Positions 14,544 through 61,860 of a DNA stretch of 64,000 nt are shown one piece after another. A program made the position numbers and the translations under genes. The stretch comes from a virus (lineage: Duplodnaviria; Caudoviricetes): positions 1 to 64,000 of IMG/VR virus record IMGVR_UViG_3300014204_000011; one strand, given 5' to 3'. Every line of letters starts with the position of its first letter. Within the stretch, counting starts at the first letter, position 1. The notes beneath the pieces are model-generated. The model was not told where the DNA came from. It ran no database searches and was given only the letters and a program-made list of their open reading frames with translations.

Positions 14544-14616
14544 GGGGCAGTAGCTCTAATGGGAGAGCGTCTGGTTTGCAACCAGAATGTTGTGAGTTCA
14601 AGTCCCACCTGTTCCA
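14544..14616 (+). tRNA. tRNA-Ala (TGC)
   Basis: cloverleaf; acceptor GGGGCAG/CTGTTCC with G3:U70; anticodon arm TCTGG-TTTGCAA-CCAGA; discriminator A; one T-stem mismatch; CCA not fully encoded. Confidence 0.9.
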
Positions 14617-16318: not shown

Positions 16319-17598
16319 ACGCTATTCACAAATAGGTAAAAATATTATAGAATGGGATCAGACCTATTATATAACTTATGCTGGGGGTAAAAGAGAACTT
16401 CCGGCTAAAGATCAAAAAGAATATGATAAAACTCTTAACTTGCCTTTTGCATTGCAAAGACAGGAATTAAAAAAACTGGGATTTGAAAAGAATCCTAATG
16501 TCGTACCGATTAAAGGATTGTCTTTGATTGAATTATTTAAAGACAGATCTTTTATACCTTTTTTTGATGAGTATTTTAATCAATCACATTTAATTCAAAT
16601 TCATGATCAGATTGTTTATGAGTCTATAAAGCAAAAATCTTATGACTTGTTGTTGAACATTTAATGAAAATAAATATCTCTAAAATTATTCAGCAAATAT
16701 ATAAATCTGAAATACCGGTTCGTATTGAATTTATGTATGACATGGGTTTTTGTTGGAGCTTGATTGATGAGAAAATATTTCCTAGAATATTCTATGATTT
16801 TAAACTTGAAGGTGTTGCTATAGAAAATATATTGACAAAAGATAAAGTTCCTGTATTTGAAAAGGATTGGATTGCTAAAGGAGTTTCACAATCTTTTGAC
16901 GATGCTATAAAAAAACTATGTGAGGCTATTGTAGAACATTTACCTGAAAGTAGTTTTGCTGAATGGTGGAGAGGTATAAATTGAGGCATAAGCATGAAGA
17001 TTTTGAAGAAGATGAAGCTAGTGTTGATAGCCGTGAACGCAATAAACAGTTAAAACAGGATTTTGATGAGCTTTATATTCATAATTGTAAAAGATCTGGT
17101 AAAAAGTTTACATGTGTTCAAAATACTACAATCTTTGTTAGCGGAAATATAACAAGGTTATTGTTACCGCCTAAAACTCATTATGCTGATTGCCTTAAAA
17201 GAATTAGCGAAAATATGTATGTACAACTCAAAACAATAAAGGAGTAACAGAAAATGACATTTGAAAAAGCGATAGAAAAAGTCTTTGATCGGGACGAGAA
17301 AAAATTCGGGACTGTTTTTGCAGAAAGAAATACTCTTTCCGGACTTGATGAACTAAAAATTGCTGCGAAAGTATGGAATATTGTAGCTTTAGCACTGGAA
17401 GAAAAAGGGCTTGACGATTTTATTATTATCAATAATGTAGGTGGTATTGTATCTATTCCCCTGAAAGAGGAGAACATTAAAGATGATTCTAAAGGAAAAA
17501 GCAAAAGTCCGAAGACAGAGACAGCTTCAGATGATGCTGTAAATGGCAAAGAAGAAAAATCAAAAGAATCTCCAGCCACAACAAAGCCAGTTAAGTAA
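16311..17598 (+). CDS. four hypothetical ORFs (16311-16664, 16664-16984, 16963-17247, 17254-17598)
   Basis: ORF track; coupled stops and starts. Confidence 0.65.
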
Positions 17599-19201
17599 AG
17601 ATACATATCTTGATGCTTTTAACGCCGGTCGTGCAGCCGTTAAAGCTGCTGACCGAGCTTTATATAATTCAGTTCCTAAAGGAATACAATATAACTGGCT
17701 TCATAACGTAAACTACAATAATGTAGTTTATCCTATAGATAAAATCCCCGATAGATTATTAAGACTCATAGAAAGAAAAAATCCCGTAGTTGGTGCTATT
17801 ACTACTTTGCGTATTCAGCAGGGTATTGAATATGCACATATCAGCCATGATAAAGATGTGCCTGGTTGGGAAATATGTTTATCAGATGAAAAAGCCACAA
17901 TAAGCCCTGATCAGGAAAAGCAAAAGAAATTTCTTGAAAATATTCTCATGTATGGACATAGAGAAGATTATGCGCCTTATCAGGTTTCGGACATGCCTCC
18001 AACTTTCAGAGAACGTATGACTATGTATATGAGAGACAGACTTTTAATTGATAAAGTTTGTTGGGAAATAGAAAGAAACCGTAAAGGTGAAACTGTTGCG
18101 CTCTGGACTCTTGACGGTGCGACTATATATCCGGTTTTACCTGGTGGATTTTATGGCAGTGTATCTCAAATTAGCACGGGTATGATAGGTGGATTTAATA
18201 AACTTACCGATGAAATAAGAAAAGCAAAGATTGAAAATATACCTCCGGTTGAAGAAATTGCTTTTGTACAGGAGCTTTTATATGGTATGTCTGGTGGAGG
18301 AATTGCTGCTGCTTTTAGGAATACTGATCTTATTTATGATATAAGCTCAGATCTTAATGATATTAGATATTATAAACAAGGTTATTCTGTAGTTGAAAAA
18401 GCTAATATGGCAGTTACGGCTTTTATAAATTCGTTGTCTTATAATAGCAACGGACTTTCAAGAGGTGCAATCCCGAAAGTTGCTATAGCTATGGGAAAAG
18501 AAAGCGGATATACACAACCACAGCTTGAAGACATGCAAGATGAGTGGATGGCTAATTTTGAAGGTGTAGACGGTCAATGGAATATCCCTCTTCTTAATGG
18601 TGATGCTAAAATATTAAATCTCATGCCTAATAATAGAGATATGGAATATCAGAAATATATGGAATTTTGCGGTGCATTGATTTGTTCAATCATGGGTGCA
18701 GATCCGGCAGAAGCTGGGCTTAGATTTAACCAGGCTCAAAATGTATTATCAGAAAACCAAGATGCAAAACAAGTATTTTCTAAGAACAGAGGACTTAATC
18801 AGCTCTTAGGAGATTTTGCATATATTGTTAATCGTTGGCTAAGAGAAAGCGGATATAAGTTTGGAAGAGAATTTGTATTTAAGTTTAATGGACTTGTTAA
18901 TTCTGATAAAGGATTTGAAGCAGATCTGTTAAAGAAAAAAGCTGAAACTTATATGGAAGTTAACGAAATAAGAAAAGAACTTGGTTTAAAACCTCTTAAA
19001 GACGGAGATATAATTCTTAATAGTATATATTTACAGGCTAAACAGGCTAATGCAATGTCAGAGCAAGGTGGGGGAGAAGATGGAGCTGAAGGTGAAAGTG
19101 ACGAAACAGGTTTTGGTGGATTTAGCGAAGATGATATTGACGGAGCTGTTGACGAAGCCGTATCAGGTATGGAAAAAGCAAAAAGCATAAGATTAATATA
19201 A
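17543..19201 (+). CDS. portal protein
   Basis: 552 aa after terL; RDRLLIDKVCWEIERNRKG, SRGAIPK, WNIPLL, RDMEY and EIRKELGLKPL motifs; acidic tail ending in MEKA. Confidence 0.88.
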   Translation: MAKKKNQKNLQPQQSQLSKDTYLDAFNAGRAAVKAADRALYNSVPKGIQYNWLHNVNYNNVVYPIDKIPDRLLRLIERKNPVVGAITTLRIQQGIEYAHISHDKDVPGWEICLSDEKATISPDQEKQKKFLENILMYGHREDYAPYQVSDMPPTFRERMTMYMRDRLLIDKVCWEIERNRKGETVALWTLDGATIYPVLPGGFYGSVSQISTGMIGGFNKLTDEIRKAKIENIPPVEEIAFVQELLYGMSGGGIAAAFRNTDLIYDISSDLNDIRYYKQGYSVVEKANMAVTAFINSLSYNSNGLSRGAIPKVAIAMGKESGYTQPQLEDMQDEWMANFEGVDGQWNIPLLNGDAKILNLMPNNRDMEYQKYMEFCGALICSIMGADPAEAGLRFNQAQNVLSENQDAKQVFSKNRGLNQLLGDFAYIVNRWLRESGYKFGREFVFKFNGLVNSDKGFEADLLKKKAETYMEVNEIRKELGLKPLKDGDIILNSIYLQAKQANAMSEQGGGEDGAEGESDETGFGGFSEDDIDGAVDEAVSGMEKAKSIRLI

Positions 19202-24654: not shown

Positions 24655-26043
24655 ATGCCTGATGATAAAGACCAACAACATGAAGTCAAAGAAGAAAGAT
24701 ATGTTGAAGATTTAATTCTTTATTATCAGACTTATGTAAATGCGGTTATAAATGAAATATTTGTAGGTATAGGCATAAGTCTTGGTCAGACAGAAAAACA
24801 AGCTTATGCAATGGCTAAGACAGATCCTAAAAAACTTGAAAAAGCATTTTTTAAAGATGTATTTGAAAAGTTTAAAAATGTATTCAAACATAAAATTCCT
24901 AAATTCAGATTAAAACAAAATATATTTAACAAAGGCAAGCCATTAACCGAAAAGCAATGGGATGTTATAAGTAAAGCAATAGCTGAATACTGGAAACAAA
25001 ATACTTCCAAAGTCACTGAAGATGTAACTGTAAAAGGTTATGTGCTAGGCATAAAATCCTCTAAATATCGTAAAACTAAAATTGATAACACTAAGAAAAC
25101 CTTACCTGAAATAATCAAACATGAAGAAAAGGAAAGCGGAAAAAAATTTGCAGATAAGTTTGAAGAAGCTTATAAACGCTATGATTTTAAAAATAGTGAA
25201 AAAAATGCTATGAACAGGGCTTTTTCAAATATAGCTATGCACGTTTCTGATACTGGTGATGGAGTTAAGCAAGCCATAAGAAAAGTTGTTACTGAAGGTA
25301 TAAATGAAGGTAAAAGTCCGGTTGAAACTGCTTCAGATCTATATTGGAATATTCAGAAAGAAACCGGTAATGAAACTGCTGAAAGTGTAAGAAAAAATTG
25401 GAATAGGATTGCTGCAACAGAAATGAATTCAATATTTGAAGCCGGTATTTTAGCTCCTTATGAAGCACAGGCTATGGAAAGCTTGAAGACCGGTAAGGGT
25501 GTTTATTTTGTCAGAGTAAACGGAACGTGCGATTGGTGTAAACCAAGACAGGGTACTATAGTTAGATTAGTTCCTACAAGCATAGTAGGTGATGTAAATG
25601 ATGACAGTTTAAAATCTATGGGTATTGATGATCCCTATACCGATATAGCTATATGGGTAGGTAAAAACAATGTAGGTAGGAAAAAACAGGACTGGCTTAT
25701 ATGCTGTCCTGCTCACCCATTTAACAGAGCAAGCTTTTCACTTATTGATTTAGATACACAAGAATATGAACCTAAATTTGGAAGAGTAGTTAATAAAGTT
25801 CCTGAAAGTTTAAAACAATATGGAATTAAAAGAGATACATCTTTTGCAACTCCGGAATATAAAGAAAGTAAAAAACCGGTTAAAATAGGTGATAATCTTG
25901 TAAGATTTTATGATAGTGTTTATGAAGCTGTAGACAAAGAAAATTATAATAAGAAATTAGAATTATGGAAAAAAGATCCATCTCAACCTATACCTGTTAG
26001 TCGTAGCAGTACAGATTATAAACATATTTTTGGTGATTTATAA
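24655..26043 (+). CDS. MuF/SPP1 gp7-like head morphogenesis protein
   Basis: NWNRIAATEMN, CDWC and CPAHPFNR motifs; LEKA site near the N-terminus. Confidence 0.8.
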   Translation: MPDDKDQQHEVKEERYVEDLILYYQTYVNAVINEIFVGIGISLGQTEKQAYAMAKTDPKKLEKAFFKDVFEKFKNVFKHKIPKFRLKQNIFNKGKPLTEKQWDVISKAIAEYWKQNTSKVTEDVTVKGYVLGIKSSKYRKTKIDNTKKTLPEIIKHEEKESGKKFADKFEEAYKRYDFKNSEKNAMNRAFSNIAMHVSDTGDGVKQAIRKVVTEGINEGKSPVETASDLYWNIQKETGNETAESVRKNWNRIAATEMNSIFEAGILAPYEAQAMESLKTGKGVYFVRVNGTCDWCKPRQGTIVRLVPTSIVGDVNDDSLKSMGIDDPYTDIAIWVGKNNVGRKKQDWLICCPAHPFNRASFSLIDLDTQEYEPKFGRVVNKVPESLKQYGIKRDTSFATPEYKESKKPVKIGDNLVRFYDSVYEAVDKENYNKKLELWKKDPSQPIPVSRSSTDYKHIFGDL

Positions 26044-28673: not shown

Positions 28674-30686
28674 ATGAATAGAGATCAAATAATTGATTTA
28701 ATAGATAGACAAATAGACTTTACTGATATGAAAAAAGCTGGTCTTGCACTGCAAAAACATTATGAAATTAATTCAAGACGCATGGAAGCAATAGATGTTA
28801 AAAACTGTCTTGCTAATGGTCATCCAATTGCCATACAGGGAAAATTGATTATTGGTTATGATATGCAAAAAGCTTTTGAAAGTAGTGATAGCGAATTTTT
28901 TGATATAGAAAGACCGGTTGAAGCTATTGAAATTGTTGAAACTCTTCCAGAGCGAGAATATTTCGCTATTGTAGGTCGTAACGAATGGGGAGATATTTCA
29001 GAATTTAATAATATCATAGGTGATTTAAGACTTGGTGAAATATATCTGCCTAAACATTCTGCAATATTCAACTTCTTAAATCCTACGGAAAAGACTAAAA
29101 AAGAAAAAATTCAAAGTGTTCTTAACGGAGTTCAAGTAATTGTTTATGAAAGAGAAAACTATGTAGATAACTGCTTCCATGAGATCGGACACCTGTTCTG
29201 GAGAACTTGTACAAGATTTGAAGAAAAGATGCAATTTAAAGAATTATTTAAACATTTACGAACATCTTGTATTTATGAATACGAATGGGAGCGAAGTACG
29301 GAAGAAGAGGTTTTTTGTACAATTTATAAATGGTATATGAAGTCTGTGCTTATAAACAAGAGTTTTTACAACATACTTGAATACGAAGAAAGCTATGGAC
29401 TTAAATTATTACAAAGTGTTTTTGACCGTATCGCTAAAGAACGGATCATTGACGATATATGGGAAATGAGCAAAGAAGATGTTATTGAATATTTAAACCC
29501 TCCCCTGGATAAAACGACCGGAAAATATATTCGTAAATCAGGTATGTTTGATAAGATTAAAGATATAGAACTGCCTGAAAGCATATTGAACCGGATTGAA
29601 AGCGTACAGAATGGACAGGCTTTTGTTGGGCTTGGTAAAGCCGTAGTGCCGGTTAATAATAATCTGATTGATTTTGATAGAATTAAAATGATACCTTTGG
29701 AGAAAGCTAATGGTAAACCAACAATATATCTCGATCAAGATGGAATTGTTACAAATTTTGCAGAAGCCTACAAGATAGCCTTTAATCGTGATGTATTTAA
29801 AGATGACAGTTTTACAGTGACAGAAATGTGTAAAACTGAGCCAAGATTTTTCTTAACTATACCAGTATTACAGCGTGGTAAAGAATTATATAATCGCTTG
29901 GTTAAAAAGTATAATATAATATTTCTCACAACCGCTATGGATGAACTTGAATATTGTAGATCTGATAAAGTGACTTGGCTTAAACAGAATATATGTTCAG
30001 AGCCTACAATAATATTTTCTGATAATAAAGCTGATTATGCACATTCTGAAAAAGATATACTCGTGGATGATATGGCTCATAATTTAACCGCATTTTATGA
30101 AGCTGGAGGGACTGCAATCAATTTTAATTCTATGTCGAATGATGAGATAATGCAAAAGATTGCAGAGACATTAAATCCACAGGAAGAAATAAGACAGATA
30201 AAGCAACAAATTAAAGAAATGAAAGTTAATGTAGAGCCGAGTGAAAAACAAAAAGAGAATGGAAATTACGCTAAAGGAAAAATAATATTTAAACAGATAC
30301 CAATAACTATAGAAAATCCAAAGGGAAGTATAAGATCAGGCATAGGCGCAAACGGTGTGAAATGGTTGTCTAAAATGAGTTCACACTACGGATATATTAA
30401 AGGTACTGAAGGCAATGATGGAGATGAAATTGATTGCTTTATTGGAGATGATTTCAGCACAAACAAAGCCTTTGTTGTAAACCAGGGTTTTAATAATTTA
30501 TTCGATGAGCATAAAATTCTCCTCGGTTTTAATACAATAGAGGATGCCAGAACCGCTTTTCTGAAATGTTATTCTAAAGGTTGGGAAAAGAATATCATGA
30601 ACATAGTACCGACCAATACAAAAGTGTTGAGACAGTGGCTAAAGACCGGCAATTATAAAGAGCCGTTTAGTGGTGAGTTTAAATAA
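28674..30686 (+). CDS. polyvalent protein: zincin-like domain + HAD 5'(3')-nucleotidase-like domain + inorganic pyrophosphatase domain
   Basis: HEIGH; IYLDQDG...LVDD; IENPKGSIRSG...HYGYIKGTEGNDGDEIDCF...DEHKILLGF. Confidence 0.85.
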   Translation: MNRDQIIDLIDRQIDFTDMKKAGLALQKHYEINSRRMEAIDVKNCLANGHPIAIQGKLIIGYDMQKAFESSDSEFFDIERPVEAIEIVETLPEREYFAIVGRNEWGDISEFNNIIGDLRLGEIYLPKHSAIFNFLNPTEKTKKEKIQSVLNGVQVIVYERENYVDNCFHEIGHLFWRTCTRFEEKMQFKELFKHLRTSCIYEYEWERSTEEEVFCTIYKWYMKSVLINKSFYNILEYEESYGLKLLQSVFDRIAKERIIDDIWEMSKEDVIEYLNPPLDKTTGKYIRKSGMFDKIKDIELPESILNRIESVQNGQAFVGLGKAVVPVNNNLIDFDRIKMIPLEKANGKPTIYLDQDGIVTNFAEAYKIAFNRDVFKDDSFTVTEMCKTEPRFFLTIPVLQRGKELYNRLVKKYNIIFLTTAMDELEYCRSDKVTWLKQNICSEPTIIFSDNKADYAHSEKDILVDDMAHNLTAFYEAGGTAINFNSMSNDEIMQKIAETLNPQEEIRQIKQQIKEMKVNVEPSEKQKENGNYAKGKIIFKQIPITIENPKGSIRSGIGANGVKWLSKMSSHYGYIKGTEGNDGDEIDCFIGDDFSTNKAFVVNQGFNNLFDEHKILLGFNTIEDARTAFLKCYSKGWEKNIMNIVPTNTKVLRQWLKTGNYKEPFSGEFK

Positions 30687-31456
30687 TGCTTTATTTAAAG
30701 GTTGGTGAGAACAAATATATAAAGCTTGAAAGTCTTGAAAAGGCTAGAAGTCATAAATATGTAAGTAGAAAGCCTGATGGAAAGGGTGGGTGGAAATATT
30801 TTTATGCGGATAAAGATAATAAACCTTCGGTAAGAATGGCTAATTACAATGACAAATCTTTAAGAATTTATAACAATTTTGAAGGTAATATTTTTAGTGA
30901 AAGGCATGGAATAATACAATCAACAAGTAAACAGTCTATCATTAAAAGTATTGAAGTTGAAAAAGAAATTGTTAAGAATACAGATTTTGAAACCGGCGCA
31001 GCTTTTGACAAAAATGGGAAACTTCTAATAAAGAAAAAAGGTGTTTATGATAAAGTTAATTTTGTAGATCCTGAATACAGAATAATAAATGGTTCGGAAA
31101 TTTTTACACATAATCATCCAGAAGACAAATCTTTTAGTGATGACGATCTTATTTTCGCTCTTGTTTTAGGCATTAAAGAAATGCGAATTATATCTCCCTT
31201 AAAAACATATTCTTTTAAAATTAGCCATAAAAATAAATCTAAAGATTTACAAGAACTTTCTGATAATATAAAATATTATCAGAAAAAAATAATTCAACAT
31301 CAAAAAATTATTCAATCTGAGAATAGTGATTTAATGAATCAAAATCCTGATGAATATTTTTTAAAAAAAGATCATAAAGTGATAGAATCACTAAAGAATG
31401 ATTCTAATTTTTTAAAACATTTTAACATAAATTACGAGGTAAAAAATAATGAATGA
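30686..31456 (+). CDS. leader + KY..R.P.G.GG motif + JAB/JAMM-like toxin domain
   Basis: LEKA-RSHKYVSRKPDGKGGWKYFY; E...THNHPEDKSFSDDD. Confidence 0.7.
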   Translation: MLYLKVGENKYIKLESLEKARSHKYVSRKPDGKGGWKYFYADKDNKPSVRMANYNDKSLRIYNNFEGNIFSERHGIIQSTSKQSIIKSIEVEKEIVKNTDFETGAAFDKNGKLLIKKKGVYDKVNFVDPEYRIINGSEIFTHNHPEDKSFSDDDLIFALVLGIKEMRIISPLKTYSFKISHKNKSKDLQELSDNIKYYQKKIIQHQKIIQSENSDLMNQNPDEYFLKKDHKVIESLKNDSNFLKHFNINYEVKNNE

Positions 31457-31800
31457 TAATTTTTTTAATCCCATAAGTAAGGAAACGAAAGAAAAAGGTT
31501 TTTTTTCTTTAGGAGGTATGGAAAAAGATATAAAGAGGCAAGAAGAATTAAAGAATATAAACCTTAAAGATTTGGAAAAAGAAATAGAAGAACTGGAGAA
31601 GAGATTGGATCATGAATAATATTGAAATAAAAAATCCTGAAGTCCATATTGACGGATCTTCTAATAAATTATTTTATATTTTTGCAGATAAAGTCTTTAA
31701 AACAGGTAATAATCAAACCGAAAAAGAACAGCTAAAAGTTAAAATCAATAAATCAATACTTAATATCGAAGAAAAAAATATGCTATTAGGTTTTTTATGA
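31449..31800 (+). CDS. two small ORFs (31449-31619, 31612-31800)
   Basis: manual translation and ORF track; coupled overlaps. Confidence 0.5.
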
Positions 31801-32075
31801 CAGATTTAGAGAGTAGAAATTATCGTAAAGTTTTTCATCCAAATGGAATGAGTATAGATACTATAGATATGAATGAATCTTTTAAATGGGAGAAATCTTG
31901 TGAATATAGTTTTTCTGAAAAATCAAAACTTATAACTAAGATATTAACAAAATATGGTATTGAGGATGAAATAATAGTTCAAAGATTAAAGAAATGTTTA
32001 CCAAAAGGTAAAAATGAATTTTTATCTTATACAGATAATGAATACGAATCATTAATAAAGGAGTTTAACTTATGA
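31797..32075 (+). CDS. putative immunity protein, paralogue A
   Basis: shares SEKSK.I.KIL...Y...R.KKCLP.G.N...DNEY..L.KEFNL with 36056-36361. Confidence 0.6.
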   Translation: MTDLESRNYRKVFHPNGMSIDTIDMNESFKWEKSCEYSFSEKSKLITKILTKYGIEDEIIVQRLKKCLPKGKNEFLSYTDNEYESLIKEFNL

Positions 32076-35000
32076 AAACAAAAATAGACTTCTCGCTCTA
32101 TACTCCTCAGATGTTGCGTGATCAGATTCAAGAAGAGCTTTTAAAAGTCGATGATGCAAAGCAAGCGTCATACAATGCAATTGTTTTTCTCAATAATTTA
32201 TATGGAGCAAAGAACATGCAGAAGGCAAAAGAACTTTCCAAACTTATAAAAAAACAAATTATTGATAAAACTGGTAAATCAACTACAGTTTATGTCAAAC
32301 CCGAAGGATCTAAAACTGAATGGCTAAATAAATTCATTAGTTTCTTTGGATTTAGTAATGCAGGTCAAGCTAATCAGCGTATTGAACAGGATTATAAAAA
32401 GCTTGAACTTGATAAAAAAGGCGTGACCTGGTCAGATTGGAAAAGTCATGTAAGTGAATATTTCAGCAATAAAGATAAATGGGACAGATTTTTTTCAGGT
32501 AAATCTTCAGAGAAAAAAGCTACAGAAAAAAAAGAAGATGCAAAAGCAAAGAAAGCTGAAAAGAAACCGGTTAAGCAGACTTTTAAATTATCTCTCATGA
32601 AAGTAGTTGCAGGATTGTACGGTAAAGCTCCGGAGAAGAAGAAAGAAGAACCGGTAAAGGCGGTTGAAAAACCCATTGAAAAACCTATCGAAAAGCCAGT
32701 CGAAAACAATTTTGATACTATGCCAGAAACCGTTGCAGAACCTGAACCAGAACCAGTTAAAGAAGAGCCTGTTAAATCAGGTGAAGAAACTCTTCAGGGT
32801 AAATTCGATAGATGGAAAACAGGAGATTTAACAGGTGTTGAAGGTCATAAATTTAATATGACTAAAACTATGATGGGTAAAGGTGGTCCTAAAACATTTT
32901 TTAATGAAATTATTATAGAGAAAATATCAAATGGATTTATGAGTTATGTTGATGCTGTAGGTGGTAGGGAAAGTTTTTCAGGTGGCATTTCTGAAAAAGG
33001 GTTTATTAATGATTTAAAAAATGGTTCGATGATTCCCGTAGGTCTGGAAAAAACCATTGATACCGGTAACGGATCTAAGATTGAAGCTGTTAAAGCCTAC
33101 ACTCCTGAACAGAGAAAAGAGGTTAATGCCGATGCTAAAGAAGCGGCGAGAGAGGGTTATTTTAACGAACGACCGGCTGAGATATTAAATGTCGGTAAAG
33201 ATGTATGGGGTGCAGCTAGACATAATTATGATACTTATCAGCAAATGAACGCTGATGTAAATCAAATGGAAAAAGAAGGAACTGCACAAGCATATGTAAC
33301 AAAGAAGAACCTTTTCGGAGATTATGGACTTGCCAATAAAGATGAAAGAGTTGGCAAAGGTGAAACCGAATATAAGGTATTAGCAAGTTTTGTAATGAGA
33401 GAATATCTTTCTAAAATGCCTCCGAATAATCCTACAGATAGAGCAATGTATATGGATTTTTGTCGTGCCATTTCAAGACTTGATCAAAATACAACTGATG
33501 CTAAAACATTTTATTTTGGTATGGCTGAGACTTTTGCTCAGATGTTTCCGATAGAAGCACAAAAACCAGCCACTCCTGGACAGGGTATAAGCGTACTTGA
33601 TATGATACCACAGAATAGAAAAGGTAAAAAACCTGAAGACATTATAGGCCCTGTTCTTACGGCTTTATTCTATTCACTGAATCAGCAGGCTAATCAGAGC
33701 CGGAACATATATTACGGTATGGATAAGAAAGAACGTAAGCAGATGGATGTAATGAGTGCAGCACTTCTAGCTGAAATCGGTAAGACTAATAAGACTTATA
33801 ATGAACTTGAAGTTATGATTTTTGGAGAAACAAAACTATCCGGCATTAAAATGAAAAAAGGTGATGCGGTTGTGTTTGCTGAAAATCTTGCTGATCATGT
33901 TTATGCTATAAGAATAGATTATGCTAGTGATGAAGATAAATTAAAGCATGATGCTTTAATAAAAGAAATTAATAATATTGGAGCAGATGGTCATTTTCTA
34001 TATCTTTCAAATAAAGAAAAAGAAAAGAAATTACCTGAACTCAATAAGAAATATGGAACTAATTTTACTATGGATAAATCGTGGGAAGTTACGAAATATA
34101 TAGATGAATTAGTAAGAGAAAAATCAGTTGAAGCTGCTAAATATAGAATAAGAACTAAAATTTTCCCAGAAGAAAAAGGACAGATTATAAAAGTTGGTAA
34201 AAGTGATATAGAGGTTGCATTCAAATTTCCTAATGGAACAATTAAAGGTTTTAGAATGAAACCAAGTGAATTAAAACCTGAGAATGTAGAATCTATTTCA
34301 AAAGACATAAAAAGGAAAGAGACACTAATATTGAATCTTGCCGTTGAAAAAAAAGTAATTCGTAAAGGTGGTAAAGATTTCTCAGGTCTTTCAATTACTG
34401 AACTTCAAAATAAACTTACCGAAGATTTTAAATTCAAAGCTATTCAGTACGGAAACAGTGTACCAGATGACGAAAGACAGTATCATACACAATGGACTCT
34501 TGAATCAATGTCTGATCTTGAAGATATTACAGGCATACCATTAGAGCAACTTACAGCACGGGGTAAACTTGGTATAGCTTTTGGAGCAAGAGGTAAGCCT
34601 ATCCCTGGAATTGGAGCAGGTGCTTTAGCTCATTATGAACCTACAACTAAAATGATAAATATTACCCGTGCCAATGGTTACGGCAGTCTTGCTCATGAGT
34701 GGGCGCATTTCGCCGATAATATTTTATCACCAGATATGAATGATTATATTACTATTCAGCCCAAAGCTATTGTAAAAGAAGTAAACTCTTCTAATATTAA
34801 AATAGGTTCGATTTATGAACACGAAACAAGGAAAGGTAAAAAGACAATTACAGAAAGATACTATTATGATGGTAAAGATCCAGAATGGCCTTTTGCTAAA
34901 TTAAATAATGGTCAGAGTGAACCCGATAGTAAATCAATGCACTCTAACTTTTATAAATTTAAAAACGGGCAATCTCTAAAAGTTTTAGAACCTGATAATT

Positions 35001-35428
35001 TACCTTTTATGGAGATAGCTTCTAAAATTGCAAGATTATCACAACAGTCTTTGCACGATCAAGCCAATAAGATCGATGATGGAATAAACAAAAAGCATAT
35101 ATTAGAAGATCCATATTTAAATGACAGAAAAGAATGTTTCGCCAGAGCTTTTGAAATATATATTGCAGATAAACTCAAAGAAAAGGGAAGAGTGAATACA
35201 TATCTTGTAAGTCATAGAAAAACATTTGAACAGGATGGAGCTTCAATTTATCCGCAGGGAACATTTAGAACCGAAATAAACAAAATGTTTGATGAGTTTT
35301 TTATAGAAATAAACAAAAATCAGGAGATGAAAAAAGCAATAGACAAATTATTAAAACAGAATAAAAATGTTTATATAAAGAAACTCAATCCCATAACTCA
35401 AAAGCCCGAATACAGGAAGGTAAAGTGA
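32072..35428 (+). CDS. large polyvalent protein with LPD1-like C-terminal domain
   Basis: 1118 aa; LGIAFGARG, AHYEP, GSLAHEWAHFADN and ECFARAFEIYIADKL...NTYL. Confidence 0.8.
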   Translation: MKTKIDFSLYTPQMLRDQIQEELLKVDDAKQASYNAIVFLNNLYGAKNMQKAKELSKLIKKQIIDKTGKSTTVYVKPEGSKTEWLNKFISFFGFSNAGQANQRIEQDYKKLELDKKGVTWSDWKSHVSEYFSNKDKWDRFFSGKSSEKKATEKKEDAKAKKAEKKPVKQTFKLSLMKVVAGLYGKAPEKKKEEPVKAVEKPIEKPIEKPVENNFDTMPETVAEPEPEPVKEEPVKSGEETLQGKFDRWKTGDLTGVEGHKFNMTKTMMGKGGPKTFFNEIIIEKISNGFMSYVDAVGGRESFSGGISEKGFINDLKNGSMIPVGLEKTIDTGNGSKIEAVKAYTPEQRKEVNADAKEAAREGYFNERPAEILNVGKDVWGAARHNYDTYQQMNADVNQMEKEGTAQAYVTKKNLFGDYGLANKDERVGKGETEYKVLASFVMREYLSKMPPNNPTDRAMYMDFCRAISRLDQNTTDAKTFYFGMAETFAQMFPIEAQKPATPGQGISVLDMIPQNRKGKKPEDIIGPVLTALFYSLNQQANQSRNIYYGMDKKERKQMDVMSAALLAEIGKTNKTYNELEVMIFGETKLSGIKMKKGDAVVFAENLADHVYAIRIDYASDEDKLKHDALIKEINNIGADGHFLYLSNKEKEKKLPELNKKYGTNFTMDKSWEVTKYIDELVREKSVEAAKYRIRTKIFPEEKGQIIKVGKSDIEVAFKFPNGTIKGFRMKPSELKPENVESISKDIKRKETLILNLAVEKKVIRKGGKDFSGLSITELQNKLTEDFKFKAIQYGNSVPDDERQYHTQWTLESMSDLEDITGIPLEQLTARGKLGIAFGARGKPIPGIGAGALAHYEPTTKMINITRANGYGSLAHEWAHFADNILSPDMNDYITIQPKAIVKEVNSSNIKIGSIYEHETRKGKKTITERYYYDGKDPEWPFAKLNNGQSEPDSKSMHSNFYKFKNGQSLKVLEPDNLPFMEIASKIARLSQQSLHDQANKIDDGINKKHILEDPYLNDRKECFARAFEIYIADKLKEKGRVNTYLVSHRKTFEQDGASIYPQGTFRTEINKMFDEFFIEINKNQEMKKAIDKLLKQNKNVYIKKLNPITQKPEYRKVK

Positions 35429-36072
35429 CTAACAGACTTATAATTAAACTGGCTGATGGTCTTTATATAGATTTAAGTAAAGCCCGAAGTCATAAATATA
35501 TCAGTCGCAAACCTGATGGTAAAGGAGGTTGGATTTATACTTATTATAAAAAACCTGTTGGAAATAGTTATGCTGTAAATTATAATGATATGAGAGATTT
35601 TGATTATGAAAAAGCAGTTCAAATATATAAAGATACAGAATCTATAAGAAATATTAAAAATTATGAACATTCAAAAATATATGATAATAAAGGGATAGTG
35701 TTACTTTATAAAATATTTCCTAAAACTGGAGGGAGTTTTACTAATGAAGAATTAAATAAAATTGAAAATTCAAAATTATTAATACATAATCATCCTTCAG
35801 GAGATTCTTTTTCCACAAAAGATATTCAGTTAATTATCGAAAAAAATATAAATGAAATTAGAGCCATAGGTCAAAAAGAAAAAACAAAAACTATTTTTTC
35901 TTTAAAATTGGAAAAACAAATTCCAATTGAATTAAAAAGAGATTTATTGAATTACCATTTTAGCTTATGGAATATAAATAAAACAACTGGAGATAAATTT
36001 TTTGCTCATAAAACAATGCAAGATTTTATAAAAGTTTATGGAGAATATTTTAAATATGAAAGAATTAAATAA
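35425..36072 (+). CDS. leader + KY..R.P.G.GG motif + JAB/JAMM-like toxin domain (paralogue)
   Basis: LSKA-RSHKYISRKPDGKGGWIYTY; E...IHNHPSGDSFSTKD. Confidence 0.7.
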   Translation: MTNRLIIKLADGLYIDLSKARSHKYISRKPDGKGGWIYTYYKKPVGNSYAVNYNDMRDFDYEKAVQIYKDTESIRNIKNYEHSKIYDNKGIVLLYKIFPKTGGSFTNEELNKIENSKLLIHNHPSGDSFSTKDIQLIIEKNINEIRAIGQKEKTKTIFSLKLEKQIPIELKRDLLNYHFSLWNINKTTGDKFFAHKTMQDFIKVYGEYFKYERIK

Positions 36073-36361
36073 AAAAGATTTTAAAAGAAATAAAATTTAT
36101 CATGAATTGTTTTATCCAAATTCGCCTTTAGGTTTAGATGGAGAAGAAATGTCTTCTGAAAAATTTGCGGAAAAAATAAAATCTTCTAAAATATCTGAAT
36201 CAGAAAAAAGTAAAATAATTAAAATATTGATACAAAATTATGATTTTATAGATAAAAATATATACAACAGAATAAAAAAATGTCTACCAAATGGATTTAA
36301 TTCAATGTATTCAATAGAGGATAACGAATATTTTGAATTAAAAAAAGAGTTTAATTTATAA
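36056..36361 (+). CDS. putative immunity protein, paralogue B
   Basis: overlaps the stop of the JAB gene; paralogous to 31797-32075. Confidence 0.6.
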   Translation: MKELNKKDFKRNKIYHELFYPNSPLGLDGEEMSSEKFAEKIKSSKISESEKSKIIKILIQNYDFIDKNIYNRIKKCLPNGFNSMYSIEDNEYFELKKEFNL

Positions 36362-36402
36362 AAAAACATGAATATTATTAATAAAATGGAAGGTTAAATA
36401 AC

Positions 36403-39400
36403 ATGGCAAATAAAATATTTTTTAAAACAGTTGAAGGTAAATATGTATCACTTGATAAAGCTTCAAATCCCGAAGATAAAGTTCGTAAGGTTATGGGTGA
36501 GTTTAAAAGAGGTACTTTACATTCCAGTTCCGGTCAAAAGGTAACTTCAAAAGACCAGGCTTTGGCAATCGCAATGTCGGAGAGTGGATTATCTAAACAA
36601 ATGGTTGCTGATATTCTTATTGATTATGATGATATGGAAAAAGCAAGTCAGATAAAAGAAGGGATTAAAGTAGAAAAAGAACATATTCCTACTATGAAAT
36701 ATATTAAAGATAAGTTTGGAAAATATCATAAAATGGCTAATACTGAAGATATTGCCGAGCACATCGCCGGAGACCATCTTGAAGAGATAAAAGATTATTA
36801 TACAAGATTACTTGAAATGGAAAAACAGGCTAAAGGCGATAAAAAAAGACCTCAAATCGAAATTGATGTAATTAAATTTTTAATTGATAATCCGAATCCT
36901 GCGGATAGTAAAGTTCATACTTTTAGTGATAAAATAGGCATAGACACACATAAACTTGAAGCGATATTCTATAAACTTGCTACTGAAAGAGCTGAAATGA
37001 GTAAAGACATGCAGAAAGCTAAGTCTGCAATAGGTACTACTGCAACTTGGGCTGACGGTAAACAATATCGTAAAGTAGCTGAAGGTCAATGGGAACAGGT
37101 TAAGGGTGACGGTAAAAGCCATAATGCTAAATTAGGTGGCGGAGCACATGGTTATGGCAAACACGATGTAAGTACAGCACCGAAGCTTCATAAGAGATTT
37201 ATGGATTATCTACAGAACATGAGCCAGGAACATCGGGACATATTCAGAGGCGGTAAGTTTGATTTTGAAAAGAAAACATTTACAGCTATAGGCGGTAAAG
37301 TAGCTTTGCTTTGGAAAGATGATAAAGTTAATATTGTTAAGACTGATAAAATGGATAAAGCCCGTGTGACCAAATATATAAAAAGAGTGCCGAAGCCGTC
37401 AGGTAAGGGTTATTATTATTTCTATACAAAGCAGCAGTTTAACCAGTATAAAGAGACTGGAAAAGTTCCTGAACAAGAAAAAGGCGATTCAGCTTTACAA
37501 AAGATATTCAAATTTTTAGGTGTTGATAATTGGATGGACGGTAGTAAAAAAATAGGTTCAATATACGAATCTAATAAAAGCTCTCTTCTTGAAAATAATG
37601 TCGATAAAAAGACTTTTGCTGAATACAGTGTAGAATACTTATCTAATAAGGAAAAATGGGATTCTCGTTTAAGTGGTGAGAAAAAAGAAAAGTCAGAGTC
37701 AAAGCCTAAGTCTGAACAGCCTAAATCTGAGAAAAAAGAGAGTGGTGATAAAAAAGAAGGTAAATGGAACATGGGTGTAATGCGAGCTATTGCAGGGATT
37801 TATGGAAGCGGAGAAATAAAGAAAATTGATACAGAAATGCCTATGCCTACTACTCCCAACAAAAAAGATGATAAGAATAAAAAAGATAAGGAAGCCCCTA
37901 AAAAAGGTTTTGAAGATGAGCTAAATGAACGGGAAAAAGAAGGTAACAATAAAACTTATACTAATAAGATAAAGCAATTACAAAATGAAATAAATAGTTT
38001 TTCCAAAACAGCTTCCGGAGGAAGTAAATATTCTCTTGATTCTAAAGGAAATGAAGATTCTGGAGAAATGTCTATTCAATTAAAAGATAGTGTATCTGGT
38101 AAAATTATTCCTAATACACAAATAACTGGTAAAATTAAAGATTTTTTAAATATTAAAAATCAATTGATTGAAAAAATGAAAGAAATAGACAGTAATGACA
38201 AATCCCCTGACAACTTCGATACTATGCCGGAGGGGGACGATATAGAAAAAGGCATAGAGGATTATTATAAAAAAATTACAGAAGAATTTAGTAATGAAAA
38301 ACCTGATTTAAATAAAATCAAGAAAGTTGCTAAAGAAAAAGCTGATAAAATAAATTCAATTATGAATAAAGAAATTTCTTTAGATACAGGCGGAATAGTT
38401 AAGTCAAATAAGAAGTTTATACTTGAAAAATATGATCCAAAAGAAGATAAAATGACTTTTAAAGATAATAACGGAAAAACTCAGGAAATAACTTTTTCTA
38501 AATTTGAAAAAGAAAATCCTAAATTTTTTAACAGTCAAAAACCCTCCGCAACCGAAGCACTGAAAACTTTTACGATAGTAGATAATAATAATCCTGAAAG
38601 AACCGTAAAAGTGCAAGCTAAAGATGAAAATGAAGCTAAAGATAAAGGTGCTTCAGAACTTAAAACTACAAACATAAGAACTTATGAGTCAAGTAATAAA
38701 GTAGAAGCACTGAAAGATGAGTTGGGGAAGAAAAAGAGCGAGAGTAGAGAAAGAGAAATAACTGTTTTTGGTAAACAGCAAAAAGTTAAAACTAAGCCGA
38801 TAGAATTAAACTTGGGATATGGTCATCCTTTTGAGATTGCTAAAAGAGAATTTGGAAGTGGTCGCTCAGATTGGATTATTCTTGAAAGTAGTACGGGTTT
38901 AAAGGTTGGAGATGGCAAAACTCAAAAAGAGGCTATTAGTAACGCTGAATCTATGATAAAAAATTATACTCCAACAGAGAATGAATTTAAAAAATTAATT
39001 GAAAAAAGTTTATCTTCCGAAAATGTTTTAAAACGTGAAAAAGAAATAGAAAAAAATAAAGAAATAGATAAAAAAGTTGAAAAAGATTTTGAAGATAAAT
39101 CTGAAAAAGGCCAGTCCCAAATAAAGAAAAACGAAGAAGATGATAAGCGAAAACAGGTTCAAAAAGATAAATTAAATTCTTCAGATCCACAGAAAAAATA
39201 TGATGCAATGAAGGAAGAAATTAGAGATTTTTCAGAAAGAAATAATATATCTGAAAAAGAAATAACAAAAGAATGGATAAATGAAGAAAGAAAACGTTTT
39301 CAACAGGATATAAAAGATGCTTATAAGTATAAAAAACCGAAAGAAGCTGGAGTTTATAAAGTTGGATTAAAAGAACTTGATAATATTGAAAAATATCAAA

Positions 39401-39861
39401 AAGAAATGATTTCTTTAAAAGAAGAACTACTCGGCCCGAAAATGTTCAAAGCCCTGTCAAATCTAAGAGAAGAGTTAATGTTTAAAGCCCAAACTACAAA
39501 ATATATTAAAAGAATACCCGATCCAAAAGGCAAGGGATATATTTACTTTTACACACAAGATCAGGTTAAAGCATATCAGAAAGATGGAACTATACCAAAT
39601 CAGCAGAAAAAGCCTAAGACTAAACCAGAACAAGGTGGTAAAACTAACATAGAAAAGCTTAAAGAAACTACAAAAAAAATAGCCACTATTGTTGCTGATG
39701 CTTTAAGTGCTAAAGATGCGGTAAATCCTGCTGGACAGGCAGTAGAACAAGCCGGAGAAGATATAAACGAAAAGAACAAAATGAAAAAAAGACTTGAAGA
39801 AAAGCAAGTACCTGATAAAAAGAAACAAGTTAATAAACCGGAGGAAAAACCGAAAAAGTGA
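36403..39861 (+). CDS. 1152-aa multi-module head cargo protein (DUF6496-like, DUF5661-like, two KY..R.P.P.GKG repeats)
   Basis: KVRKVMGEFKRGTLHSSSGQKVTSKDQALAIAMSE; GIKVEKEH...DHLEEIKDYYTRL; modules preceded by LDKA, MEKA, MQKA, MDKA and MFKA. Confidence 0.75.
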   Translation: MANKIFFKTVEGKYVSLDKASNPEDKVRKVMGEFKRGTLHSSSGQKVTSKDQALAIAMSESGLSKQMVADILIDYDDMEKASQIKEGIKVEKEHIPTMKYIKDKFGKYHKMANTEDIAEHIAGDHLEEIKDYYTRLLEMEKQAKGDKKRPQIEIDVIKFLIDNPNPADSKVHTFSDKIGIDTHKLEAIFYKLATERAEMSKDMQKAKSAIGTTATWADGKQYRKVAEGQWEQVKGDGKSHNAKLGGGAHGYGKHDVSTAPKLHKRFMDYLQNMSQEHRDIFRGGKFDFEKKTFTAIGGKVALLWKDDKVNIVKTDKMDKARVTKYIKRVPKPSGKGYYYFYTKQQFNQYKETGKVPEQEKGDSALQKIFKFLGVDNWMDGSKKIGSIYESNKSSLLENNVDKKTFAEYSVEYLSNKEKWDSRLSGEKKEKSESKPKSEQPKSEKKESGDKKEGKWNMGVMRAIAGIYGSGEIKKIDTEMPMPTTPNKKDDKNKKDKEAPKKGFEDELNEREKEGNNKTYTNKIKQLQNEINSFSKTASGGSKYSLDSKGNEDSGEMSIQLKDSVSGKIIPNTQITGKIKDFLNIKNQLIEKMKEIDSNDKSPDNFDTMPEGDDIEKGIEDYYKKITEEFSNEKPDLNKIKKVAKEKADKINSIMNKEISLDTGGIVKSNKKFILEKYDPKEDKMTFKDNNGKTQEITFSKFEKENPKFFNSQKPSATEALKTFTIVDNNNPERTVKVQAKDENEAKDKGASELKTTNIRTYESSNKVEALKDELGKKKSESREREITVFGKQQKVKTKPIELNLGYGHPFEIAKREFGSGRSDWIILESSTGLKVGDGKTQKEAISNAESMIKNYTPTENEFKKLIEKSLSSENVLKREKEIEKNKEIDKKVEKDFEDKSEKGQSQIKKNEEDDKRKQVQKDKLNSSDPQKKYDAMKEEIRDFSERNNISEKEITKEWINEERKRFQQDIKDAYKYKKPKEAGVYKVGLKELDNIEKYQKEMISLKEELLGPKMFKALSNLREELMFKAQTTKYIKRIPDPKGKGYIYFYTQDQVKAYQKDGTIPNQQKKPKTKPEQGGKTNIEKLKETTKKIATIVADALSAKDAVNPAGQAVEQAGEDINEKNKMKKRLEEKQVPDKKKQVNKPEEKPKK

Positions 39862-40160: not shown

Positions 40161-41045
40161 ATGTTTTTTCAGATTAACGGCTTAACCATCCAAAACCTAC
40201 AAAAAGCTTCAGACGACAAGCTTGTTAAAGTTGATATTATAGCCAATCATCTTACCGAAGATAGTGACGGAGAAGTAATACTCAAAGAAGCATTTTCTCC
40301 CGAAGTTATCAATGATTTTCTTTCGACCGGCGTAATTAATTTCTGGCATGATAATAAAAATCCTCTCTTATCAAAAGAAGAGCAAATGAACGCTTTACTT
40401 GGTAAACCCATAGCTTTTAGATGGGAGAATGGAAAGCCTGTAGTTACTGCACAACTTACTAAATCACATCCTATCGTACAAACAATGATGCCTCATCTTG
40501 AAGCAGGTAATCCTGTGTATAGCGCAAGCGTAGATGGATCTAAAATGGTTATGCTTGTAGAAAATAGTGAAGGTGAGAAAAAGAAAGTCATACCTAAAAT
40601 CAAATGGAACGGACTTGCCATAGCCCCCTGTAATTCAGTAATCAATCGAGAACCAGGTGTTAATGTTAAATTGTTAAGTAAGGCAAATGATATAATTGCT
40701 GAATTTAACGATATGGATAGCTTTAAAATGATGTCTGGACAGATCTTCTCCCAAGAAACCGAACTCCGTAAAGCTTTATCTGCCCCTGAAAGTGTAGGTG
40801 ATATGCAAAACACTTCAGGAGGAGTTATAACAAAACAAGATTTAGAAAAAAGCGTTACATCTTTAACCTTTTCCGAGGATGAAGCATGTAATCTTATAGA
40901 TACAATATTAGGTATTAAAAATGGTTCGATACCAATAACAATAAATGAATATAAGAACCATTTTAAAAATAATGAAGAATTTGCTGATAAGTCTTATCGG
41001 CTGTTCGATAAATATTTCAAAAAAAACAACAAGGAGCAATCGTAA
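40161..41045 (+). CDS. prohead (maturation) protease
   Basis: DSDGEVI, FWHD, SASVDG and LAIAP...N motifs of HK97-like proteases; GAGG RBS; upstream of scaffold and MCP. Confidence 0.85.
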   Translation: MFFQINGLTIQNLQKASDDKLVKVDIIANHLTEDSDGEVILKEAFSPEVINDFLSTGVINFWHDNKNPLLSKEEQMNALLGKPIAFRWENGKPVVTAQLTKSHPIVQTMMPHLEAGNPVYSASVDGSKMVMLVENSEGEKKKVIPKIKWNGLAIAPCNSVINREPGVNVKLLSKANDIIAEFNDMDSFKMMSGQIFSQETELRKALSAPESVGDMQNTSGGVITKQDLEKSVTSLTFSEDEACNLIDTILGIKNGSIPITINEYKNHFKNNEEFADKSYRLFDKYFKKNNKEQS

Positions 41046-41046
41046 C

Positions 41047-41826
41047 ATGATAACAAAAGAAGAATTGTTACAGAAAGGAATTGATCCTGCCGAAGCTGAT
41101 AAGATAATTTCGGCTCTCGAAGGACAAGCTGAAAATTCCTCTCCCCTTGAAGCTCTAAATAAGGCTCTAAAAGATGATTCAGAAATGGATTCTCTTTTTA
41201 AAGCAGCCAAAAAGGGAGAGGGTGATGAGGATGACGAAGAGGATGAAGAGGAATATGACGAAAAGTTCATGAAAAAGATGAAAAAGTACATGAAGTCAAA
41301 AGGCAAAGAAGACAGTGGTGATGACGATGACGACAAAGGCTTTTTCGGAAAAGAAATGAAAAAAGCTGTTGATGACATTAATCCTGATTCAGATGGACTT
41401 GTTATTGAAATGGCTGATTTTAAACCGGTTTTTGAGTCTATGGTATCGACAATACAAAAGATGTCAAAAGCTATATCCGGACTTGAAAGAAAGGTTGAAG
41501 TTCTTTCAGAGCAAAACTCTGATTCTTACAGTCTTTTGGCTAAAGCTGCTGCTGTTACTGCCGAAACTGCGGAGATTGTAACTGGAATGGGTAATATTCC
41601 GGCTGGAAGAAAAGGTGCTTTAATAGCAGACATGAAAAAAGCTAAACAAGTCGAAAATGTAGATCCTCAAAAAGTTTGGACAGCTCTCGCTAAGGCTGTA
41701 AATGCCGGTGATTTGAAAGCTGGAGAAATTGGATCTAAATTTGAAAGTGCTGGAAAAAGATTCGGTTTTCTATCTGATCCAGAACAGGCTTATGTTATGG
41801 AACTTATGAAAAAGGAGGCTAACTAA
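41047..41826 (+). CDS. capsid scaffold protein
   Basis: AAGGAG RBS; acidic and helical; seven [L/M]xKA sites. Confidence 0.8.
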   Translation: MITKEELLQKGIDPAEADKIISALEGQAENSSPLEALNKALKDDSEMDSLFKAAKKGEGDEDDEEDEEEYDEKFMKKMKKYMKSKGKEDSGDDDDDKGFFGKEMKKAVDDINPDSDGLVIEMADFKPVFESMVSTIQKMSKAISGLERKVEVLSEQNSDSYSLLAKAAAVTAETAEIVTGMGNIPAGRKGALIADMKKAKQVENVDPQKVWTALAKAVNAGDLKAGEIGSKFESAGKRFGFLSDPEQAYVMELMKKEAN

Positions 41827-41827
41827 G

Positions 41828-43342
41828 ATGGATGAACTATATATGTTAGCAGAAAACGGGATGGGGGACATGGGGCTTGGCTCTCTATCGCAACTTGAAG
41901 CATTAAGTAAAGCTCTTTCTGCCCCTGCGAGTTATACAGATCTTTATACAACTCCAGGTGGCTCACTTACAATGCAATCATTGGAAATGATGCTTGCAAC
42001 TCTTACTCTTAAAGCTACTGATTTTACTCTATGGCAGGATATGAACAAGATGAAAGCATATTCTACTGTTGAAGAATATGATCAGCAGACTGGTCTTGGT
42101 ATCTCTGATGGTGGATTTGTTGACCAATTCAGCAATCCTACATTTCAAGACGCTGATTTTATCAAACAAATCTCAATTGTTAAGTTCATGAGAGAAGGTT
42201 GGAAGGTTGGTGATGTACAGGAAGCAACCAGAACAACTATAGACATAAGAACAAAACAACAGCAAGCTGCTATGGCAAGGATGTTGAGAAACCTTGACCG
42301 TGCGCTTTATAACGGTAACTCTGCATGGATTCCTGAAAGTATTGATGGTCTTGCTAAAACCATTGCTGCTTCTTCTTCAGAACAGATTTATGATATGAGA
42401 GGCGGTAATGTAACTATGGGTACATTTAACCTTATCGGTCAGCTTATCACTGAAGGAAATGGTCAGGTAGAAAATGCGAAAATATATGTTTCTCCGGCTG
42501 GAGTTCAAAATCTAAGCACTATTACTGAAGACGGTACTACTGCTGCTAATAACAGAAAGATAATGAAATCTGGTGATGCTAATATTACTATCGGTGGTAA
42601 AATATCAGGTATTATGACAAATTTCGGTGAGATGAAACCGAGAATGGATAAAATACTTGGTCTTGAATTTGAAGCACAAGGCGTTCCTAAATACAGGAAT
42701 AATACTACCGGTCTTTGGGTAGAAGGTGCTACTGCTGATAATGCTCCTTCAGCTCCGGCGGTTGCTCTTACTGTTAATGCTGTTGGTACAGGCTCTAAGT
42801 TTAGCGCAGGTACAACCAGACCTTCAGGCGTTGCATATTCTTATAGAGTAAGTGCAAGGAATAAATATGGAAGATCAATAGCTTGCGCTGCTGTAACGGC
42901 TGGTTCAACTGTAGCTGCCGGTGGATCTATTTCAATTGCTATTACTCCCGCTGCTGGAGATAGCGGTGCGAAAGTTCCTTCTTGTTTCGTAATTTATGCT
43001 AAAAAAACAGAAGATGCGAATAATGATTATAGATACATGGACACAATCGCTGCGGATGCAACTAATCCTCTTGCTGCCGTAACATATGAAGATAAAAATC
43101 TTTATATACCAGGTACAGCGAGAATGTATGTTATAGACCAAACTACACAGGGAGAAAGCAGAGTTCTTTCTTATGCTCAGTTACTTCCTATTCACAACAC
43201 AGATCTTGCTAAAGTCGGGCCTTATAGCCAGGGACTTATCAATCTGTATGGTACTATGAAATATTACAAGCCGAATGTTCTTGTTGAAATCAGAAATATC
43301 GGTGTATCTCAGACAAATGCAAATCTTTACAATGTAGTTTAA
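41828..43342 (+). CDS. major capsid protein
   Basis: 504 aa; LEALSKA propeptide junction, QSLE, STVEEY; Fn3-like insert YSYRVSARNKYGRS. Confidence 0.9.
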   Translation: MDELYMLAENGMGDMGLGSLSQLEALSKALSAPASYTDLYTTPGGSLTMQSLEMMLATLTLKATDFTLWQDMNKMKAYSTVEEYDQQTGLGISDGGFVDQFSNPTFQDADFIKQISIVKFMREGWKVGDVQEATRTTIDIRTKQQQAAMARMLRNLDRALYNGNSAWIPESIDGLAKTIAASSSEQIYDMRGGNVTMGTFNLIGQLITEGNGQVENAKIYVSPAGVQNLSTITEDGTTAANNRKIMKSGDANITIGGKISGIMTNFGEMKPRMDKILGLEFEAQGVPKYRNNTTGLWVEGATADNAPSAPAVALTVNAVGTGSKFSAGTTRPSGVAYSYRVSARNKYGRSIACAAVTAGSTVAAGGSISIAITPAAGDSGAKVPSCFVIYAKKTEDANNDYRYMDTIAADATNPLAAVTYEDKNLYIPGTARMYVIDQTTQGESRVLSYAQLLPIHNTDLAKVGPYSQGLINLYGTMKYYKPNVLVEIRNIGVSQTNANLYNVV

Positions 43343-59756: not shown

Positions 59757-59757
59757 A

Positions 59758-61727: not shown

Positions 61728-61860
61728 TTGTTTTCCATTTGAATATTTTTTTTAATTCTTTGTTTAAAATCTTCGTCAGTCTCATCTTTCATTTTTAAAA
61801 ATGAATCAAGTTTTTTTTAATCCTGAATAACTTTTAATAAAATTGGTTTTCCCCTGTTTT

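Follow-up and report, generated by a model that had tools for sequence, protein, structure and literature searches.

What does a short leader peptide do when it recurs at the N-termini of proteins encoded among the head genes of a tailed phage? We addressed this question in an uncultured phage (Duplodnaviria, Caudoviricetes; record IMGVR_UViG_3300014204_000011, 85,750 bp), analyzing the first 64 kb of its genome (here called the window, in whose numbering all positions are given). Three open reading frames (ORFs) located between the portal gene (17543..19201, plus strand) and the major capsid protein gene (41828..43342, plus strand) begin with such leaders. The reading that we favor, and hold to be fairly probable from the sequence comparisons below, is that the leader is a short, removable β-hairpin propeptide on split polyvalent effector proteins that are packaged in the head, and that it is cut off by a protease resembling gp21 of phage T4.

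The initial annotation described leaders of 20 residues on ORFs starting at 30686, 35425, and 36403, each with K-A at residues 19 and 20, and all three are present as quoted. Every start is preceded by a Shine-Dalgarno-like site (GGTGAG before the ATG at 30686, AGGAAGG before the GTG at 35425, and GGAAGG before the ATG at 36403). Leader A (30686..30745, plus strand, as are all features below unless noted) is a predicted β-hairpin that ends in L-E-K-A and heads protein A (30686..31456; 256 aa), in which residues ~70 to 256 form a putative JAB/MPN (RadC-like) cargo domain. Leader B (35425..35484) has a GTG start that overlaps the stop codon of the gene before it; this leader ends in L-S-K-A and heads protein B (35425..36072; 215 aa). 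Leader C (36403..36462) ends in L-D-K-A directly before a DUF6496 domain; its protein C (36403..39861; 1,152 aa) is of the polyvalent type (DUF6496 and DUF5661) and has six [LM]-x-K-A sites, several of them at domain borders. The three ORFs had been considered otherwise different, which is incorrect for A and B. These two are paralogous (BLASTP E = 7e-19; identity of 32% across 176 aa) and have an invariant H-x-H-x6-S-x2-D motif in common. The leader therefore occurs here on just two independent types of cargo. The common placement of K-A is a coincidence of length: A contains an insertion of 3 residues but does not have the 3 additional residues with which B and C begin, and K-A lies at residues 16 to 21 among the homologues. 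The insertion in leader A (L-E-S before L-E-K-A, 30716-30745) is not found in the closest homologues and resembles a short in-frame duplication of the stretch around the site.

A and B belong to a tandemly duplicated cassette consisting of a JAB-like gene, a small ORF, and a gene for a large protein (a segment of 110 residues is common to both large proteins). A and B could thus have inherited the leader by duplication, with C being merely similar to them. In line with this explanation, a hidden Markov model (HMM) built solely from the leaders of the JAB family found A and B but no others, and the C leader did not rise above noise; an HMM built with all four leaders (these three and a candidate on the protease described below) is circular. 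Because the JAB-only HMM missed C, the link of C to A and B rests on a pairwise score and on bridging homologues. When leader B was compared with every 20-mer of the 127-protein proteome (ungapped BLOSUM62), the N terminus of C ranked first with a score of 43, in register from residue 1, whereas the next real match scored 23 and the maximum over 20 shuffled proteomes was 35. The similarity between leaders B and C therefore exceeds chance. In the bridging homologues (P0016, P0017, P0019, and P0032), a C-type leader is followed directly by K-A and the K-Y motif introduced below, as in A and B. The orthologues of C also retain the leader in three complete related genomes with capsid proteins 78, 67, and 64% identical to that of the window phage (G003, G001, and G002). 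Duplication combined with chance is thus disfavored as a highly improbable account. Comparison of the leader regions at the DNA level showed no recent gene conversion. A further hairpin-like stretch, in a small ORF on the minus strand (28338-28505), was taken as chance.

The residues that end the leaders recur throughout the head genes. The proteins encoded between 28674 and 43342 contain 25 [LMIF]-x-K-A sites against about 7 expected, and there are few elsewhere. A scan of all 8,000 gapped tripeptides (a.bc) in the portal-to-capsid block of the window genome and of G003, G001, and G002 identified M.KA as the most overrepresented recurrent pattern in all four, with L.KA close behind in three; only one-off cysteine patterns outscored M.KA, in some genomes. 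The block of the window genome has 13 M.KA sites against 1.4 expected, and the other 18 thousand residues have 3. Pooled over the four genomes, [LM]-x-K-A occurs 118 times in 35.4 thousand residues of the head block (3.3 per 1,000 aa) and 33 times in 72.4 thousand residues elsewhere (0.46 per 1,000 aa), an odds ratio of 7.3 whose significance overstates independence, as the four genomes are related.

The sites are also conserved by position. In ortholog alignments, K-A is invariant at aligned positions and the flanks diverge. These positions number seven to eight in the scaffold and include residues 23 to 29 of the capsid protein (L-x-K-A and then L-x-A-P); the N terminus, middle, and C-terminal part of the protease; the C-terminal tail of the portal; and residue ~61 of a MuF-like protein. 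In the window, the scaffold-like acidic protein (41044..41826, with the start taken from the ortholog alignment) has seven [LM]-x-K-A sites, and the major capsid protein (phrog_752) has a single one, L-S-K-A, at residues 26 to 29 (nucleotides [nt] 41903-41914). The portal has a conserved M-E-K-A a few residues before its C terminus, and the MuF-like head morphogenesis protein (24655..26043) has a conserved site at residues 61 to 64. In the two structural models made (the protease and A), the sites fall in low-confidence linkers; in protein C and in a polyvalent-type protein of 670 aa (28674..30686; NT5C plus InPase), they fall at Pfam or PHROG domain borders. The 670-aa protein has a putative 22-residue N-terminal propeptide that is unlike leaders A, B, and C and ends in M-K-K-A, and one [LM]-x-K-A site immediately precedes its NT5C domain.

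A related code was seen outside the close relatives. Hydrophobic-x-K-[SAG] is present at the capsid N terminus in four of four genomes, namely, the uncultured relative G004 and three phages in culture whose capsid proteins are related (Leptospira phage LE1, Bacillus phage SP-10, and Bacteroides phage DAC16). It is repeated in the scaffold of each (annotated as such only in SP-10, a candidate in the others), and several of the four also have it near the protease N terminus or the portal ends. This pattern suggests that hydrophobic-x-K-small is a lineage-wide protease specificity. The LE3/LE4 paper contains no capsid-processing data, and no cleavage site is named in the paper on Bc431v3. LE1 gp26, a ParB polyvalent protein, opens with F-L-K-G followed by the K-Y motif. 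Taken together, the sequence patterns make it very likely that [LM]-x-K-A is the head maturation protease site of this phage clade. Since the terminal K-A of the leader is the end of this protease-like site, a cleaved N-terminal propeptide is the best reading, and removal of the leader is likely. By analogy with T4, where the cut follows [LI]-x-E, cleavage would probably occur between K and A.

A candidate for the corresponding protease is encoded immediately upstream of the scaffold (40161..41045; 294 aa); its sites lie near residues 13, 172, and 202. Its start is backed by a ribosome-binding site, and a protein already on record matches this 294-aa reading exactly. No Pfam match was found for it. 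A structural model (predicted local distance difference test [pLDDT] of 70) had T4 gp21 (5jbl) as its top Foldseek match (E = 1e-3). VIA aligned 5jbl with a Z score of 9.1 (root mean square deviation of 3.6 Å over 130 of 164 residues), and herpesvirus proteases came next (Z = 6.7). As modeled, the product is of the T4 gp21/herpesvirus assemblin fold. Across 41 homologues, H63 is invariant and S123 nearly so, and the two are candidates for the catalytic His and Ser. The first 16 residues (40161..40208) end in L-Q-K-A, have a hairpin-like pattern (pLDDT of <50), and are strongly conserved in 120 homologues; they are possibly a fourth leader. Past the third K-A site, residues ~200 to 245 of the protease resemble residues 20 to 65 of the capsid protein (L-x-K-A, L-S-A-P, and then T-P-G-G), and the same resemblance to the capsid N terminus is present in three relatives. 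The protease may be retained in the procapsid through this capsid-like segment.

Three residues past K-A, proteins A and B continue with a basic/aromatic stretch, the K-Y motif (K-Y-[IV]-x-R-x-P-x3-G-K-G-x2-Y-x-Y; 30755..30805 in A and 35494..35544 in B). The motif also occurs twice inside C, once after a hairpin-like stretch and M-D-K-A (37297..37437, residues ~299 to 345) and once after two copies of M-F-K-A (39424..39564, residues ~1008 to 1054). Its key residues are invariant in all 15 JAB homologues (K24, Y25, P30, G32, G34, G35, Y38, and Y40). Some of these homologues have a helical module of ~45 residues in place of the hairpin. The same module heads a 1,118-aa LPD1 protein of the window (32072..35428), where it spans ~52 residues and ends in M-Q-K-A before a K-Y-like hairpin. 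As the helical module replaces the hairpin on the JAB cargo, the N-terminal modules are interchangeable.

To follow the spread of the larger unit, we searched 1.84 billion representatives with a 48-position profile covering the hairpin, K-A, and K-Y. The search returned 289 clusters at an E value of ≤1e-3 (41 at ≤1e-10), with proteins of 74 to 3,105 aa that often had two to four copies. Carrier domains included Zeta_toxin, LPD1, ART-PolyVal, ddrB-ParB, RelA_SpoT, SNF2, Kinase-PolyVal, InPase, NUDIX, and RadC. Among the best 150 of the 289 clusters, the full module stood at residue 1 in about 25 (proteins of 76 to 1,952 aa, including DarB-like cargo with Eco57I methylase and SNF2 domains) and was internal in about 15, in several of which the hairpin itself was preceded by another M/L-x-K-[AS]. 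The remaining hits, about 110 of the 150, had K-A and K-Y only, without the hairpin. No Pfam model covers the module (E values up to 5). The idea of a portable tag proposed in the initial annotation thus gains support from the varied cargo behind the module, but the conserved unit is longer than 20 aa, comprising the hairpin, [LM]-x-K-A, and the basic K-Y hairpin. A leader HMM had been suggested as its check; in contrast to the model from JAB leaders alone, the profile of leader plus K-Y did find cargo-diverse proteins. The N-terminal placement of the tag likewise stands for the carriers with the module at residue 1 and fails for the internal ones.

The coupling of K-A to K-Y is open to another explanation, in which the hairpin, K-A, and the K-Y hairpin form one small, uncleaved β-sheet adaptor domain, such as a handle that binds DNA or protein in the host after injection; K-A would then have a structural role, and its resemblance to the scaffold and capsid sites would be secondary. 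Of 216 K-Y motifs, 94% have hydrophobic-x-K-[AGS] within 14 residues upstream, versus 8% of random windows, a figure inflated by the K-A columns contained in the search profile. The spacing from K-A to K-Y is exactly three residues in 132 of 204 cases across very diverse phages, and the module is repeated two to four times inside long proteins. The AlphaFold model of A agrees with such a domain in that a short helix over K-A connects two hairpins: the leader hairpin spans residues 2 to 14 (strands 2-5 and 11-14; pLDDT of about 48), and the K-Y motif forms the second hairpin at residues 26 to 40. In the same model, however, the module is a low-confidence appendage, separated by a disordered stretch from the confident globular domain (residues 70 to 256). 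The parts are also separable, since C and the protease have the hairpin without a directly following K-Y and most profile hits have K-Y without the hairpin. In addition, the scaffold keeps the same tetrapeptide at seven to eight places and the capsid N terminus at one, with no K-Y after it. We consider the uncleaved adaptor unlikely.

Several observations nevertheless weigh against a cleaved propeptide as we propose it. The internal hairpin copies do not fit a strict N-terminal signal. [LM]-x-K-[AGS] is fixed together with K-Y also in very different GC-rich phages, so that K-A within the module could be structural. The leader and K-Y region of A is modeled only at a pLDDT of 47 to 60, i.e., with low confidence. 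Finally, the protease leader resembles leaders A, B, and C in pattern only, without statistical support, and the JAB-family HMM failed to link it just as it failed with C.

A leader that is cleaved need not be an address. It could instead dock or present the precursor to the protease or act as an inhibitory propeptide, holding enzymes such as the JAB proteins and the protease itself inactive until the head closes, with K-Y or a conserved downstream segment directing packaging. The protease itself bears a highly conserved hairpin-like leader, as zymogens do, and K-Y has a much wider distribution than the hairpin. The hairpin is also dispensable for the JAB cargo, which occurs with either the hairpin or the helical module. 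Interchangeable N-terminal modules on one cargo would equally fit alternative address tags, however, and in C the leader precedes a small nonenzymatic domain, DUF6496. The low pLDDT of the leader and the lack of any predicted packing provide no structural sign of contact with an active site. We judge this alternative to be somewhat less probable still than the uncleaved adaptor. Within the favored reading of a removable propeptide, the further step, that the leader is the actual packaging address, is drawn by analogy and is tentative; we lean slightly against it.

The cargo of A and B is a candidate JAB/MPN domain. H142, H144, S151, and D154, which make up the H-x-H ... S-x-x-D metal motif, are invariant in the 15 homologues. 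The top 20 Foldseek matches of the A model comprised AMSH, RadC (2qlc), CSN5, the 26S proteasome, and related JAB domain entries, all weak (E only 1e-2). Pfam gave no match for A or B, including none to RadC at an E value of 0.01, PHROGs gave no match of any kind for A, B, or the small ORFs of the cassette, and only a chance match came up when PDB sequences were searched with the profile of the A family. The two small ORFs (31797-32075, 92 aa, and 36038-36361, 107 aa) each lie downstream of a JAB-like gene, and their translations are visibly paralogous, with a shared C-terminal motif (K-K-C-L-P ... D-N-E-Y ... K-E-F-N-L). Neither ORF has a leader, an [LM]-x-K-A site, or a family match in Pfam. 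Their products may act on the JAB proteins as partners or as inhibitors.

The initial annotation had likened the leader to the capsid-targeting sequence (CTS) of T4, with a different sequence. In T4, the CTS is carried by internal proteins and removed by the prohead protease gp21 (PMC9958956, citing Mullaney and Black 1996). The likeness is that of a short N-terminal peptide common to proteins encoded in the head region, which here ends in the putative motif of the phage's own protease, one predicted to have the gp21 fold, and which would be removed after assembly. The two differ in that there is no sequence similarity, the leaders here have about 16 to 20 residues with a hairpin pattern instead of about 10, and the proposed site is [LM]-x-K-A instead of [LI]-x-E. 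Moreover, the leader usually precedes the conserved basic K-Y hairpin and also occurs inside long fused proteins. What survives of the comparison is a probable cleaved propeptide that is an analogue of the CTS, not a homologue; a strictly N-terminal unit of 20 aa does not survive. A second parallel is DarB of phage P1, of which the first 30 residues suffice to load a reporter, with loading dependent on accessory Dar proteins (PMC9024508). DarB is a giant methylase-helicase antirestriction protein with an N-terminal signal, and some module carriers have Eco57I methylase and SNF2 cargo. No sequence relation between its signal and the leader was seen (the two were not compared directly), and the sections of PMC9024508 seen report no cleavage of the DarB signal.

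The prohead protease of SPN3US and phiKZ, which cuts propeptides at A-x-E (PMC10052503), offers a parallel for the processing. Many head proteins of these phages have N-terminal propeptides (two of them of 20 to 24 residues), the motifs recur inside the propeptides, and the protease cuts itself. Their motif is different, however, most of their propeptides are far longer, and the paper describes no leader sequence common to them (PMC10052503). The cargo is closest to the polyvalent proteins, which were predicted to be packaged and injected and for which processing by in-cis zincin metallopeptidases was proposed (Iyer et al. 2017, PMC5512222). The portal-to-capsid genes of the window phage encode polyvalent-protein domains, namely, InPase (4e-44), NT5C, LPD1 (2e-16), DUF5661, and DUF6496, besides the RadC-like JAB domain, and DarB-like PHROG matches were found among the window proteins. 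The difference is that the array here is split over several ORFs (670, 256, 1,118, 215, and 1,152 aa), whereas fused forms elsewhere reach 3,105 aa. In the passages of PMC5512222 that were searched, neither a head protease site code nor the junction module of hairpin and K-Y is mentioned.

In the mechanism that we propose, the precursors would enter the procapsid core together with the scaffold, and the hairpin may help to direct them there. The gp21-like protease would then cut the scaffold at its seven sites, the capsid protein N terminus, and the tail of the portal, as well as the cargo and its own chain. The hairpin would be released, long cargo would be split at domain borders, and many of the new N termini would begin three residues ahead of the basic K-Y hairpin. 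A broader version, in which the module is a general three-part cassette in many phage lineages (the hairpin addressing the procapsid core, the site freeing the domains, and K-Y at the new N termini holding the fragment on packaged DNA or marking it for ejection), seems unlikely.

Other features of the genome provide context. Cultured phages are all distant from the window phage: the best capsid protein match is 28% identical (Bacteroides DAC phages), and SPO1-like phages and LE1 gave weaker matches. For the scaffold gene, the longest ORF (40945-41826) begins 33 codons too early compared with the orthologues, which begin at the methionine encoded at 41044; this start removes most of an apparent 101-nt overlap with the protease gene, leaving a few bases. 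A phospholipase A homologue of the outer membrane type (Pfam PLA1, E = 5e-21) lies within the head gene block (23391-24155), and by this homology it implies a Gram-negative host. The window also has one tRNA-Ala (TGC) gene (14544-14616), and eight minus-strand ORFs with an inverted GC skew (55369-62247) break the otherwise plus-strand late region.

If the broader version were true, the cassette would be a loading tag that can be transferred, and it would embody the logic by which phage polyvalent proteins are processed. The favored reading itself would provide a concrete, testable rule for the processing and loading of polyvalent effectors, the maturation of which has so far been guessed at. 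It would also define a head protease specificity (hydrophobic-x-Lys and then a small residue) apparently common to a large capsid lineage that includes the SPO1-like Bacillus phages, the Bacteroides DAC phages, and LE1. Such a rule would aid the annotation of mature protein ends and packaged cargo in metagenomic phages, and it could yield a small tag by which foreign proteins are loaded into the capsids of cultivable relatives.

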